Assembly (NCBI GenBank): GCA_034668565.1
Contig: JAXDPE010000044.1
Location: forward strand, 997-64,996
Origin: Sphingomonadales bacterium
GTDB lineage: Bacteria > Pseudomonadota > Alphaproteobacteria > Sphingomonadales > Sphingomonadaceae
Reading direction: 5' to 3'
Length of the DNA: 64,000 nt
In this document: piece by piece, positions 13,947-58,237 of the stretch
How the letters are laid out: the number at the start of each line of letters is the position of its first letter
Position numbering within the stretch: position 1 is the stretch's first letter
Notes under the pieces: generated by a model
Told to the model about the DNA's origin: nothing
Databases searched by the model: none
Seen by the model: the letters and a program-made list of their open reading frames with translations, nothing else
Position numbers and translations under genes: made by a program

Positions 13947-14021
13947 GGGCCTGTAGCTCAATGGTAGAGCCGGCCGCTCATAACGGCTAGGTTGGGGGTT
14001 CGAATCCTCCCGGGCCCACCA
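13947..14021 (+). tRNA. tRNA-Met (anticodon CAT; elongator-like, tRNA-Ile2 not excluded)
   Basis: GGGCCTGTAGCTCAATGGTAGAGC...CTCATAA...GGGGGTTCGAATCCTCCCGGGCCCACCA folds as a cloverleaf. CCA is encoded and initiator-specific features are absent. Confidence 0.9.
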
Positions 14022-14120: not shown

Positions 14121-14197
<77 letters not shown>

Positions 14198-18767: not shown

Positions 18768-19392
18768 GTGGCAGCGAGAATAGGCCTTTGGGAGCATTTC
18801 CGGACGCTCGCGAGCTTCAAGGGCCGGGAGGACCGGGCGAGCTTCTGGCCTTATGCGGCGCTGGTGCTGGGGATCGTCATGATCGCGAGCGCGGTCATGA
18901 CGATCCCGATCATGGCGCATTCGATGCGGGCGATGCACAATTTCCACGTCCAGAACCCGGGCGACTTCAACTTCGCCGTGGACCCGGACGAATTCAATTT
19001 CGCCGCGGACCCCGACAATTATTCCCTGTCGGTGCCGCCGCAGGCGGCCGCCCTGATGCCGTCCGCCGGCTCGCTGTCGGCTTATCTGGCCGTGACCCTT
19101 GGCCTGGCGGTGCTGCTTTACGCCGCCGCGGTCGCCCCGCCGGCTTCACGATCGCGGCCGGTCCGGCGCTTGGGGCCTGATGCCGCTGCCCTTCATCGCT
19201 TATTCGGCGGTCCAGATGCTTCGGCTGTTCGAAGCGATGGGCCGAGGCGGGCCGCTGAATGACAGCCTGTTCCTCACCATCGCGATCAGCAACATTCTCT
19301 ACTGGGCCGCGCTCCTGACCCTGGTCGTGCTGCTCGCGGGAGCGAGCGATCCAGAACCCAACCGCTACAACATGGACGACCGCACCTTATAA
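18768..19392 (+). pseudogene. DUF805 family inner-membrane protein, interrupted by a +1 frameshift
   Basis: The N-terminal DUF805 motif FKGREDRASFWPYAALVLGIV is in frame 18768. The signature RRLHDRGRSGAWG and the remaining TM segments are in frame 19099..19392. The frames join at the C-run 19135-19138. Confidence 0.7.
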
Positions 19393-19396
19393 AAAT

Positions 19397-19411
19397 GTTC
19401 TTGACTTGTTC
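19397..19411. promoter_or_regulatory. GTTC-N7-GTTC, alphaproteobacterial SOS (LexA) box-like, overlapping a TTGACT -35-like hexamer
   Basis: GTTCTTGACTTGTTC in an AT-rich stretch right after the DUF805 stop. An 8-nt match of this kind is expected by chance about twice in a window this size. Confidence 0.3.
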
Positions 19412-19861
19412 TCACCAATCGACTAGGAAGGAAGCCTGCCCGAGTCGTCTTGATCAAACGGCGGAGGCGGGGATCCGGCCGAGGGGTTCGCCTTAAGGCC
19501 GGGCGGCCGGCGCGAAGTCATCCGGGAACGTTTGAGCTCGCGTCTACCGAAGAGTCGGGACTGCGATTTGTCCTTACCGGAAAAAGGAGCCCGAAGGGCT
19601 TCCGACCCGGGTGACGCGTGGGCTTTTCGAGAGCCGAGGCGTTTGCCACCTGTCCTTCGCAAGAAGGATTTGGAGCCTCCTGAACAAGGAGGATAGGACC
19701 CGCCGGCTCTTCACTTAAGTCTGGACGCTTTCGAGTAACGACGAAAGCATACAAAAAGTCGTCCAGCCCCGGGTGCCGGTGGCAAGGACGCGCCGGCCGT
19801 ATTTTCCCACCGTGCTCCAGCGGACGCACAACCGCGCCCGCGCGCGCCCGTCATCCCATAA

Positions 19862-19975
19862 CCGTCATGCTGAACTCGTTTCAGCATCCAGTCCCGAGCC
19901 GCTCTATCGCCCGGCCATCATCTCCGAACACCGAGCCGCCCCACCATGGACCCAGAAACAAGTTCAGGGTGACGG
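19862..19975. repeat. palindromic MITE-like element, family D
   Basis: CCGTCATGCTGAACTCGTTTCAGCATCC ... GGACCCAGAAACAAGTTCAGGGTGACGG. A related copy lies at 24131-24217. Confidence 0.7.
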
Positions 19976-19997
19976 CGGTTGGGCGAGACCCCTCGCG

Positions 19998-20233
19998 CCT
20001 CCCGGCATTCCCGCGAAGCGGAATTCCCTCCTTTCCCTTGTCCCTTCGTGCCTTCGTGCCTTCGTGCCTTCTCTCAAAACGAGGGTGCCGAAACGACCGC
20101 GAGCAGGCACAAACGCCTGACCGAGTGCGAGGCCGCGCATCCGGCGTTCAGCTTCCAGCGACGTGCCTGGCTTTTTTGGGCAGAGCAGGCACGAAGGCGC
20201 AACGTTGTAAAGGGGATGGAGCCGCTTCGCGGT
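19998..20233. mobile_element. second copy (inverted) of the CCTTCGTG-repeat MITE-like element
   Basis: (CCTTCGTG)x3 at 20043-20066. The core ...CGCCGGATGCGCGGCCTCGCACTCGGTCAGGCGT (reverse strand) matches ...CGTCGGATGCATCGGCATCGCACTCGGTCGGGCGT in copy 1. Confidence 0.7.
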
Positions 20234-20317
20234 TGGCCTGAATTGCGCAAGCCCTCGATTAACTTCCTTATAACCATGTCCCGCTAGATCGGGCGCCCTG
20301 TCGAGGGGCGCGCGCGG

Positions 20318-21223
20318 ATGTTGAACAAGTCGATGCTGGGTCTTCCCGTGCTGCTGCTGGGGGCGTCCTGCGTGCCTCCGGTCGCGGCAGGGCAGGGGGT
20401 TGTCAGCCCGGGCTCGGCGCCCGTCAGCGCGCTCGGCGCCCGCGCCGTTCCGCTGCCGCCGGTCGAGGCGATCGCTCCGGGCGAGGCGGCGGAGCCGTTC
20501 GTCGTCGGCAAGCGAAGCGAGGCCGATCTCGCGGCGTCGCTGCAATGCCTCACCGCCGCCGTCTATTACGAAGCGCGCTCCGAATCGTTCGAGGGCCAGC
20601 GCGCCGTCGCCCAGGTCGTCCTCAACCGGGTTCGTCACCCCGCCTTTCCAAAGAGCGTCTGCGGAGTCGTCTATCAGGGCTCGCAGCGCCGCACCGGCTG
20701 CCAGTTCAGCTTCACCTGCGACGGCTCGCTCCGAGCCCGCCGCGAGCCCGCGGCCTGGGCGGTTGCACGGCGGATCGCCGGAGCGGCGCTGGCCGGAAGC
20801 GTCTACGGACCGGTCGGCCAGGCCACCCATTATCACGCGTCCTACGTCCATCCCTGGTGGGCGGCGTCGCTGAAGCGGGCGGTGACGGTAGGCTCCCACA
20901 TCTTCTATCGCTGGCGCGGCGACTGGGGCGATCCCAAATCCTTCCGCCGTCCCTATCTCGCGGCCGAAATCGTCGAGCGCCCCGGACCGGCGGCACGGCC
21001 CGTCGTCCGAACGGCCGAGAAGGCCGATTCCGGCGAGACGAGCCGGACCTTCGGAGTCACCGTCCGCCGCGGCGGCCCGCCGCCGCGCTTCTTGGCGTCG
21101 GCCACGGAAGAGCCGCCGGAACGCTCGGCAAACGCCGCCGGCGTTCGAGTCCATAGCGGGCTTCCGGACTTCGTCAGCGTCGACGACGACGCCGGGCAGG
21201 GGGACAGCGCCCCGGCCAGCTGA
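20318..21223 (+). CDS. cell wall hydrolase, SleB family
   Basis: LTAAVYYEARSESFEGQRAVAQVVLNRVRHPAFPKSVCGVVYQG...CQFSFTCDGS...THYHASYVHPWW is the Hydrolase_2/SleB core. N-terminal signal peptide present. Confidence 0.85.
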   Translation: MLNKSMLGLPVLLLGASCVPPVAAGQGVVSPGSAPVSALGARAVPLPPVEAIAPGEAAEPFVVGKRSEADLAASLQCLTAAVYYEARSESFEGQRAVAQVVLNRVRHPAFPKSVCGVVYQGSQRRTGCQFSFTCDGSLRARREPAAWAVARRIAGAALAGSVYGPVGQATHYHASYVHPWWAASLKRAVTVGSHIFYRWRGDWGDPKSFRRPYLAAEIVERPGPAARPVVRTAEKADSGETSRTFGVTVRRGGPPPRFLASATEEPPERSANAAGVRVHSGLPDFVSVDDDAGQGDSAPAS

Positions 21224-51093: not shown

Positions 51094-51180
51094 GGACAGG
51101 TGGCCGAGTGGTTTAAGGCAGCGGTCTTGAAAACCGCCGTGGGTTCACGCCCACCGTGGGTTCGAATCCCACCCTGTCCG
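51094..51180 (+). tRNA. tRNA-Ser (anticodon TGA)
   Basis: GGACAGGTGGCCGAGTGGTTTAAGGCAGCGGTCTTGAAAACCGCC + long variable arm + GGGTTCGAATCCCACCCTGTCCG. CCA is not encoded. Confidence 0.9.
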
Positions 51181-51184
51181 CCGT

Positions 51185-57891: not shown

Positions 57892-58011
57892 GTCGCTGAT
57901 TTCCTTGCGATGTGGCTGGTTCCGACCAGCCTCGAGCGAAGTCGAATGCGGGCCTGTACCCAATGCGCCCGAATTTGACAAGGCGACGCGCCGCCGACTA
58001 ACCCTGCGCCC

Positions 58012-58237
58012 AGCGAAGGTGCCCTTCACGCCGAAGCTACGGCGGGGGAAGGGTGAAAAGGGAAGCCGGCGGAAATCCGGCGCTGTGCCCGCAACTGTGA
58101 ACGGCCCCGGCCGCAAGTCAGGAACCTGCCTTCGCCGTCGTCCGCATCCGGCCGGGACCAGCCGAAATGCGTGGCGTCGGGGACGGACGATCCGGCCGCG
58201 ATTCCTCCGAGACGACAAATCGTCGTTGAAAGGAGGA
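58012..58237 (+). promoter_or_regulatory. cobalamin (AdoCbl) riboswitch with RBS-sequestering expression platform
   Basis: GGTGCC...AAGGGAAGCCGGCGGAAATCCGGCGCTGTGCCCGCAACTGTGAA...GTCAGGAACCTGCC matches the B12-box core. TCCTCC (58203-58208) can pair with the SD GGAGGA (58232-58237). Confidence 0.85.

Follow-up and report, generated by a model that had tools for sequence, protein, structure and literature searches.

What occupies the 925-nt intergenic gap (19393-20317) that separates a DUF805 gene from a cell-wall hydrolase (Hydrolase_2) gene in a Sphingomonadales bacterium? We analysed 64,000 nt of contig JAXDPE010000044.1 (the window). An original prediction from the letters of this DNA had proposed that the gap holds a box of the type bound by LexA, followed by hairpin-rich sequence that might specify a damage-inducible structured non-coding RNA (ncRNA), a long leader, or a missed micro-ORF (small open reading frame). 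A search of the window's own assembly showed that the spacer is pieced together from three repeat families, which we call elements A, B and C (Table 1). The box lies in element A. Our best reading, from comparative sequence analysis, is that element A is a copy of a previously undescribed multicopy gene family for a large folded RNA in soil Sphingomonadaceae. More specifically, we think it fairly likely that 19394-19850 is a stand-alone gene for a structured RNA of about 420 nt, under a promoter that would be covered by a repressor, presumably LexA in this genus. Below, genomes, contigs, loci and genera have handles that begin with G, C, L and g; G000 is the genome of the window and is 95.25% complete.

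Copies, limits and coding capacity of element A

The window copy (100%) has two paralogues in its own genome, C4:46290-46748 (80% identity) and C66:4586-5034 (76%). Of 156 genomes from the genus, whose relatives are titled Allosphingosinicella, 35 have element A at E<=1e-8; among the 86 of high quality, the count is 19. An exact 31-nt core is present in 55 stretches of a species-representative genome collection, at up to 8 loci per assembly. Its carriers are all metagenome-assembled genomes (MAGs), labelled as Allosphingosinicella sp., one Sphingomonadales bacterium, and uncultured Alphaproteobacteria bacterium. Most carriers of element A are MAGs, and the carrier genomes are related, so the counts are not independent.

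At least four further genera of Sphingomonadaceae have distant relatives of element A, which reach 9 copies in a genome. When searched with a covariance model of the 5' module (R1), genera of the family other than that of the window gave weaker full-length matches. On inspection, we judged those in G226, G191, G181 and G291 to be true relatives, and we dropped weak matches in G282, G269, G189, G304, G301 and G259, which looked like coding sequence. We also ran a 19-nt core pattern, with at most one mismatch, over 401 Sphingomonadaceae genomes. This gave 9 copies in G191, 7 in G291, 6 in G323, 5 in G459, 4 in G274 (by pattern alone), and 2 each in G226 and G553. Single one-mismatch matches were left uncounted, as they were at the level of a reversed-pattern control (~9 matches). 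G382 and G498 have one exact match each, and both look genuine on inspection. The copies in G191 include 8 full ones, at 84-100% identity.

Three loci in G323 and G459 (L271, L272 and L278) carry diverged forms of the RNA, downstream of the TTGACA/AACC-N5-GGTT promoter that is described below for other genera. These relatives keep a P1a hairpin with a GAUC or UGAUCA loop. As they lack the AAGUCAUCCGG core, the RNA family is broader than the core pattern shows.

In alignments of 21 and 34 copies, homology starts sharply at (A)ATGTTCTTGACnTGTTCT (19394; also given as ATGTTCTTGAC), next to unrelated flanks, and it fades after ~19850. The original prediction ended its hairpin-rich unit at ~19830; the unit is real and conserved, but the conservation reaches ~19850. 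The copies are 369-560 nt long and share one order: a variable -10 region, a conserved 5' block, a middle of variable size, a conserved 3' block, and a fading tail. Across the 156 genomes of the genus, element A often appears as the two conserved blocks with a differing middle. No position varies within blocks of 40-60 nt, whereas elsewhere the copies differ by 20-30%, and even the three own copies, which differ from each other by 20-24%, have invariant cores.

We exclude a protein-coding gene because the conserved parts contain indels of 1-2 nt, the copies vary in size, and they share no ORF. That the region has no convincing ORF had been claimed before, and it holds: the ORFs here are short or lie on the minus strand, and none is kept among the copies. 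It is also very improbable that element A is a long leader or the mRNA of a small protein (a SidA-like inhibitor or a type I toxin), whose fold would regulate how a micro-ORF or the downstream gene is translated. SOS-controlled small toxins whose highly folded mRNAs are closed by pairing between the 5' and 3' ends do exist elsewhere, and the window copy has + strand ORFs of 33-54 codons. However, no ORF is kept in place or in frame, the indel lengths are not multiples of three even inside conserved blocks, and the 40-60 nt blocks are unchanged at all three codon positions. The ATG at 19395 reaches a stop after 7 codons in the C66 copy. As for a leader, the copies adjoin unrelated housekeeping genes in either orientation, and the downstream genes differ and are often on the opposite strand.

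Element A does not resemble a known RNA class in our searches of Rfam. There was no match at the gathering score in 19300-20320. When the window copy was compared with 4227 models of Rfam 15 at E<=10, we saw only six noise matches (9.7-16.2 bits), and in 7 + 8 loci of relatives (E<=0.1 and 0.5), nothing overlapped element A. The Rfam 15 classes whose covariance models gave no match at or near the gathering score include tmRNA, RNase P, 6S, SRP, group I/II introns, HEARO, ROOL, GOLLD, OLE, raiA, and alphaproteobacterial small RNAs (sRNAs). ARAGORN did not recognize element A as a tmRNA either. An Rfam identification was one of the outcomes that the original prediction had named as counting against it, and no Rfam family matched. 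We did not find element A in the literature, in searches by family, LexA box, core strings and Sphingomonas small RNA at the level of listings and abstracts.

The predicted fold and its covariation

We predict that the transcript's 5' domain forms two hairpins, P1/P1a and P2. The core would then be closed by two long-range helices between the 5' and 3' halves, P3 (12 bp) and P4 (7 bp). Inside the core, P5 would close a domain of variable size, and the invariant P6 hairpin would follow. The RNAalifold consensus on the full alignment contains all of these: P1 (CCUGCC/GGCGGG), P1a (GUCGG/CCGGC), the P2 hairpin, the long-range helices P3 (GCGGCCGGCGCG/CGCGCCGGCCGU) and P4 (AUCCGGG/CCCGGGU), P5 (GAAGAGCCG/CGGCUCUUC), and P6. 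P3 also forms in the minimum free energy (MFE) fold of the window copy alone. The fold of the + strand has an energy of -194.4 kcal/mol (z = -3.04, with 0 of 100 shuffles as stable), and the fold of the - strand has z = -2.30 against shuffles.

That the 5' domain of P1, P1a and P2 is selected as RNA structure is well supported by covariation. We used a model-based alignment of 98 matches, 76 of them distinct, and considered 21 pairs of these three helices. Among the distinct sequences, 86.6% of cells are paired, compared to 69.8% in shuffles. The covariation score is 0.421, compared to 0.155 for shuffled alignments; none of 500 shuffles scored as high, and slid controls gave 0.05-0.16. All but one of the 21 pairs changed on both sides. 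The alignment also indicates the strand: G·U is the commonest state at column 7-44 of P1 (54/76) and column 16-35 of P1a (53/76), as it is in P4 (35/53). G·U on this strand would be A·C on the other, so these states argue that the + strand is selected as RNA. In other words, the generic marks of a structured ncRNA, which are compensatory changes and strand-specific G·U pairs, are both present, in an alignment fitted to the model.

The long-range P3/P4 core is plausible, mainly from its conservation. When 53 sequences from five genera are aligned with MAFFT alone, P3 and P4 together are 98.0% paired, compared to 34-42% in slid controls. In P5, the observed pair states are AU 28, GU 5, GC 1 and GC 13, UG 12, CG 1. 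The variable domain inside P5 has a short form of ~100-140 nt and a long form of ~230 nt.

Several aspects of these data weaken the case for a folded RNA. The alignment of the 5' module was made to fit the structure model and so is biased towards the structure, although the slid controls share this bias. Of the P3/P4 pairs, 13 of 19 never vary, and the single compensatory pair (GC 39, AU 13, GU 1) may reflect one event. P6 is invariant within the genus and so offers no covariation. Also, part of the 5' strand of P3 has a local alternative pairing (GGCGCGA with UCGCGUC). In genus g27, the outer stem of P6 is kept and the inner part is different.

A string check showed that every sequence listed in the original prediction is present in the window, and the coordinates are right, except for the start of a TATTTT tract. 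The capped hairpins TCCTTC-GCAA-GAAGGA (19653-19668), AGCCC-GAA-GGGCT (19588-19600) and CCTCC-TGAACAA-GGAGG (19676-19692) are all there, and the nested CTGGACG[GCTTTCG..CGAAAGC]..CGTCCAG is P6. The TATTTT tract exists but starts at 19800 (19800-19805), one base from where it had been placed. It directly follows the 3' strand of P3, with an overlap of one base, and no terminator hairpin precedes it. In other genera, the tail position holds GCGCCCGCAAAUCC(U)AUUUU, which has a terminator-like look. The location of this tract at the 3' end of a long-range helix strand, the multicopy nature of the element, and the other operator of other genera were not part of the original prediction.

A second self-complementary stretch, with a GAGCUC core, follows P4. 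Its role is uncertain, and we give it little weight: MAFFT aligns it onto P5, so its placement is ambiguous. The counterpart in other genera reads CGAAGCUUCG, CGAUGCAUCG, CGGAGCUUCG or CGAUGCUUCG.

Table 1. Features of the spacer, in coordinates of the window
Feature	Position	Strand	Remarks
Element A	about 19394-19850	+	3 genome copies
GTTC-N7-GTTC direct repeat	19397..19411	+	LexA-type operator, putative; overlaps the -35
-35, TTGACT	19401..19406	+	TTGAC nearly invariant in the genus alignment; TTGACA at the same place in other genera
Candidate -10, CTAGGA/TAGGAA	19423..19429	+	from alignments; most copies have CCATAT
Predicted RNA body, ~420 nt	19432..19850	+	both ends predicted; G·U pairs fit the + strand only
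P1 (CCUGCC/GGCGGG) enclosing P1a (GUCGU/ACGGC)	19435..19471	+	93-94% of cells paired; 10/11 pairs changed on both sides
P1a loop	19449-19457	+	holds palindrome UUGAUCAA (19450-19457)
P2 hairpin, CCGGCC-GA-GGGG-UUCG-CCUU-AA-GGCCGG	19475..19502	+	all 10 pairs changed on both sides; sequence and length vary
5' strands of P3 (GCGGCCGGCGCG) and P4 (AUCCGGG), AAGUC between	19503..19526	+	RNAalifold
Second self-complementary stretch UGAGCUCG (GAGCUC core)	19533..19540	+	invariant in the genus
P5 (GAAGAGUCGG / CCGGCUCUUC)	19549..19712	+	closes the variable domain (19559-19702), which has the three capped hairpins
P6 nested hairpin, CUGGACG[CUUUCG-AGUAACGA-CGAAAG]...CGUCCAG	19721..19766	+	invariant in 33 genus sequences
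3' strands of P4 (CCCGGGU) and P3 (CGCGCCGGCCGU), GGCAAGGA hairpin between	19768..19800	+	RNAalifold, MFE fold, pair counts
CU-rich tail, small variable hairpin, GCGCCCGC	19801..19850	+	probable 3' end region
Element B	19862-19979	matches both strands	dozens of genome copies
Element C	20010-20233		~6 genome copies; internal inverted repeats

The putative promoter and its operators

We propose that a sigma-70-type promoter (TTGACT, a spacer of 16-17 nt, and CTAGGA/CCATAT) is overlaid by the GTTC-N7-GTTC operator, and that LexA would keep the gene off until DNA is damaged. The motifs themselves are as first described: the box reads GTTCTTGACTTGTTC, and TTGACT is followed, after a 17-nt spacer, by TAGGAA at 19424-19429.

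GTTC-N7-GTTC is the alphaproteobacterial LexA box. In the window's genome it occurs 96 times on both strands, where ~58 are expected from base frequencies. It lies 27 nt before the lexA ORF, 46 nt before uvrA, 25 nt before a PA0069-family radical-SAM gene, and 210 nt before an SRAP gene, whose box (TTTGTTCTTTATTTGTTCTCA) is identical to that of element A (AATGTTCTTGACTTGTTCTCA) at 17 of 21 positions. Two overlapping boxes precede an imuA-like ORF by 20-45 nt; after this ORF come a Y-family polymerase-like ORF and a second dnaE (imuA-imuB-dnaE2). The lexA promoters of four other genera also have the motif. Because it precedes SOS genes of this genome and lexA in four other genera, GTTC-N7-GTTC is the LexA operator type of these bacteria.

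The box is present in all three own copies of element A and in 54 of the 58 distinct copies from the genus. Element A shares with members of an SOS regulon the type of operator, the overlap of the operator with the core promoter (the -35 and the spacer), and its conservation in orthologues and paralogues. The second TGTTCT of the box is invariant, and as a promoter spacer is otherwise free of sequence demands from RNA polymerase, this argues for a bound factor. The originally proposed structured ncRNA behind a LexA-type box has gained comparative support for both the structure and the type of box: copies keep the box, the box is found at the genome's own SOS genes, and the helices covary.

LexA control of a promoter at this site also faces difficulties. 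The box by itself is not significant within the window. The earlier estimate of about two chance boxes per 64 kb is about right (1.49 expected on both strands, and 3 observed, with at least 3 in 18 of 100 shuffles). The first GTTC might be conserved as part of the promoter. The motif is not at every SOS gene: the 400 nt upstream of this genome's recA lack GTTC-N7-GTTC. The box is also absent from all 15 distinct copies that we inspected from other genera. These carry an AACC-N5-GGTT palindrome or TTACGTAA instead, so SOS control is not a trait of the whole family. Finally, a strict sigma-70 promoter scan of 19000-20500 accepted no sites, and it rejects the candidate promoter because TAGGAA lacks a T at position 6. 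A scan of the same region gave no terminator-like site on the + strand. Among public sequencing runs that contain the stretch, a search listed three of DNA type and none of RNA.

As a side observation, recA has a palindrome-like GTTCTCATGGAAC instead, located ~100 nt upstream (G000:C1).

Copies in genera g27, g72, g46 and g36 have TTGACA, then the AACC-N5-GGTT palindrome, then TATAnn. The copies in G191 have a TTACGTAA core in place of AACC-N5-GGTT. One copy from the window's genus (L052) retains an AACC...GG(C)T type of operator, and G382, from another genus, has an AACC-N5-GGTT-type operator plus GTTCCGCATTTGTTC abutting the -35. The operator pattern AACCANNNNGGTTA has 27 matches in five genomes, compared to 6 for a reversed control. 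By their coordinates, 16 of the 27 (15 sites) are the promoters of core-pattern matches, and four more head divergent relatives of the element A RNA. One further match (L281) precedes a protein ORF. The AACC-N5-GGTT operator is thus almost private to this RNA family. The common theme seems to be a near-consensus promoter covered by a putative repressor site, with a repressor that differs by lineage.

A frequent extended motif (GTTCGTGCTATGTTCC) might have served to delimit the SOS regulon, but we left it unused, as its neighbouring genes are not SOS genes. The extended motif (T/C)GTTCGTGCTATGTTC(C/T), which contains GTTC-N7-GTTC, has at least 10 intergenic occurrences in G000 beside unrelated genes (for instance, at C3:19095, C21:23567, C27:134432, C35:41930, C46:36154 and C81:66407). 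The neighbours include glycerate-kinase-like, sulfatase, DUF2339, aminotransferase, GST and methyltransferase genes.

The palindromic loop, gene neighbours and possible roles

What might such an RNA do? The best clue may be the loop of P1a, which is 9-11 nt long. In 73 of 74 distinct rows of the alignment, it holds a palindrome of 4-8 nt at a fixed place. With shuffled loops, a palindrome was seen in a mean of 19.8 rows and a maximum of 31 (1000 trials). If only distinct loop sequences are counted, 22 of 23 have a palindrome, compared to 8.2 expected. The central tetramers are GATC (51), GGCC (9), GCGC (8) and GTAC (5), so all four self-complementary inner dinucleotides occur, and no other. 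Longer palindromes include UGAUCA, UUGCGCAA, GGAUCC and UGGAUCCA besides that of the window copy, and genera that we inspected additionally have UGGCCA, GCGC, GGCC and CUGAUCAG. In the loops of P2, a palindrome was found in 0 of 64, but those loops are short.

The palindrome is common to all copies within a genome (for example, GTAC in five copies, GCGC in three, GGCC in eight, or GATC in six). Outside the loop, identity among the three copies of the GCGC genome is only 71-86%, and the copies nearest to them in other genomes (85-89%) carry GATC. In the GTAC genome, the nearest relatives elsewhere (93-95%) also carry GATC. Because the loop almost always displays a palindrome, which is common to all paralogues of a genome, we infer that the RNAs pair with each other and that the P1a loop is a kissing-loop site. 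Selection for loops that are complementary among the copies of one cell would explain the concerted palindromes. On the other side, gene conversion would explain the shared palindromes too. Our confidence in loop-mediated self-association ranges from low to somewhat short of even.

We rejected avoidance of restriction sites as the cause of the palindrome switches: GATC occurs 33 times where 19 are expected, and 25 times where 13 are expected, in the loci of the GTAC and GCGC genomes. GTAC is generally rare, and five of the seven GTAC sites in 6.2 kb of sampled loci from the GTAC genome fall in P1a loops. In G000 as a whole, GATC is 3.2-fold over-represented, GTAC is at 0.15 of the expectation from base composition, and GCGC and GGCC are near 1.

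The dimerisation site of HIV-1, the DIS hairpin, is a kissing loop. Like it, element A has a ~9-nt loop with a self-complementary tract flanked by unpaired A, and shows natural swaps of the palindrome. Unlike it, element A is on bacterial chromosomes, its palindrome core is mostly 4 nt (6-8 nt in some copies), and it is known from sequence alone.

As the likeliest mode of action, we favour expression on DNA damage and then association of the RNAs via their loops. If the loops do pair, the P1a palindromes would join the RNAs loop to loop into dimers or larger assemblies. On damage, 3-9 strong promoters would fire together (via LexA in this genus, or another repressor elsewhere), and the transcripts would come together via the loop, and perhaps via the second self-complementary segment, into homo- or hetero-oligomeric particles that act in the damage response. 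This full picture, of a stress-derepressed class of RNA that builds RNA-RNA assemblies via a common palindromic loop changing in concert across loci, is rather unlikely.

The same RNA gene could instead encode a conventional trans-acting regulator or sponge. It would titrate a protein, or bind Shine-Dalgarno (SD) regions of target mRNAs through its CU-rich tail (UUCUUCCCC) or another single-stranded part. This gives the palindromic loop no self-pairing part, though it is not exclusive with an RNA that also self-associates. A pyrimidine-rich tail follows P3 in nearly all copies, several loops contain GGA, and Alphaproteobacteria are known to have multicopy families of sRNAs with CU-rich anti-SD motifs. 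But 370-560 nt with a near-invariant multi-helix core is far more than a base-pairing sRNA needs, and the palindrome statistics and the concerted change within genomes would be left unexplained. A sponge of the CsrB/RsmZ type was rejected because its partner, CsrA (PF02599), was not found in the genome at its level of completeness. Overall, we consider a conventional regulator or sponge unlikely.

The surroundings of the copies raise another alternative, which is that element A is a non-autonomous mobile DNA element (similar to miniature inverted-repeat transposable elements, MITEs, or to PATEs). Its conserved hairpins would then serve a transposase or recombinase from another locus, and the end that resembles a promoter would be either incidental or a promoter that points outward. 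The genes beside the three own copies and 14 copies from other genera are unrelated housekeeping genes in both orientations, including EF-P-side, aldolase, GAPDH, guanylate kinase, ExbD, PGI and ligase genes. This dispersal of a multicopy sequence would fit mobility, as would the frequent location of copies at contig ends in MAGs (as expected of repeats), the identity of the copies in G191 (84-94%, and 92-94% for some), and the position of element A among other repeats (the REP-like B and the inverted-repeat C).

The orthologous locus, upstream of the hydrolase gene, gives the most direct view. Among the ten closest relatives, element A is present in six (G011, G113, G088, G127, G014 and G022). 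Two have an intact locus without it: G005, where 220 nt separate DUF805 and the hydrolase gene, and G098, which has element C only. The locus is cut by the contig start in G009 and G135. Element A is in none of 14 more distant loci. The copy at this site has a short variable domain in the window and the long form in G011 and G022. This pattern shows gain or loss of element A at the locus, by whatever mechanism, which also fits a mobile element and in that respect tells against our main reading.

However, the ends of 21 aligned copies with their flanks show no terminal inverted repeats, and the comparison of filled and empty sites shows no target duplication. No transposase, reverse transcriptase or recurrent protein is encoded beside the 3 + 14 inspected copies, and element A has no match in a plasmid collection. 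Its boundaries coincide with the promoter and the 3' tail, and the own copies are as divergent as described above and yet have invariant cores. Covariation over several internal helices, with the asymmetry of G·U, indicates selection of one strand as RNA. The two readings are also compatible, as recombination can spread an RNA gene. We consider a purely mobile DNA element quite improbable. If it is one, it lacks the usual ends, which would likewise need explanation.

How would an RNA gene of this kind compare with known systems? In E. coli, istR/tisB is an example of a LexA-regulated sRNA gene. LexA sites at sRNA genes have also been described in Mycobacterium tuberculosis (PMC3381160). As in those cases, element A is a predicted ncRNA gene with its core promoter under the species' LexA operator. 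But its RNA would be ~420 nt (370-560 in the family) rather than roughly 100 nt, and it is multicopy (3-9 per genome), with a closed multi-helix core, a palindromic loop, and no partner toxin ORF. Also, within the family, the LexA box is found only in one genus and one relative, and other genera use another operator.

ROOL, GOLLD and OLE, three large structured RNAs of bacteria with no assigned function, form homo-oligomers. Element A resembles them in its length of several hundred nt, its many conserved helices, its lack of coding capacity, and its possible RNA-RNA self-association. It differs in having no Rfam match, in its phylum, and in being made up of stand-alone genes behind putatively repressor-covered promoters, and its self-association is suggested by palindromes only. 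Few large structured RNAs of unassigned function are known from bacteria, and so far every new class of them has opened up new biochemistry. Element A offers several handles: the putative promoter under a repressor site (the LexA box in one genus, AACC-N5-GGTT in others), the several copies, and the invariant core. The concerted change of palindromes among paralogues amounts to a natural compensatory-mutation experiment that points to RNA-RNA pairing. If DNA damage does induce the RNA, the SOS response of Alphaproteobacteria, so far described mostly in terms of protein genes, would gain a large non-coding component.

Like MITEs and REP-type repeats, which include elements B and C, element A is multicopy, intergenic and rich in hairpins. 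B and C match on both strands and are either short or have inverted repeats at their ends, whereas element A has no inverted ends and has one orientation-specific architecture, with a promoter and covarying helices. Element B (~118 nt) lies directly 3' of the tail of element A and has a REP/BIME-like look. Each of its two ends, ~30-40 nt long (one example is GTCATGCTGAACTCGTTTCAGCATC), is found dozens of times on both strands of this genome and its relatives. Element C (~224 nt) contains inverted repeats (GCCTTCGTGCC... / ...GGCACGAAGGC) and, at ~20044-20067, a short tandem of CCTTCGTG. One copy of C abuts the element A copy on contig C4, and other copies lie upstream of the hydrolase gene in relatives without element A.

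Turning to the flanking genes, the DUF805 membrane-protein gene (18768-19392) is split over two overlapping frames (18768-19262 and 19099-19392). These match different parts of the Pfam model, which implies a frameshift or an assembly error. Its stop codon is 2-3 nt upstream of the start of element A, and its C-terminus differs from that of the orthologue in G005. The hydrolase gene is preceded by GATTAACTTCCTTATAACCATG here (20255-20280) and by GGTTAACCATC in G005 and G098 (loci L194 and L193). This sequence resembles the CtrA motifs, TTAA-N7-TTAAC / TTAACCAT. Elsewhere in the window there are ordinary RNA features: a cobalamin riboswitch at 58000-58147 (78.9 bits), and genes for tRNA-Met, tRNA-Pro and tRNA-Ser at 13947-14021, 14121-14197 and 51094-51182.

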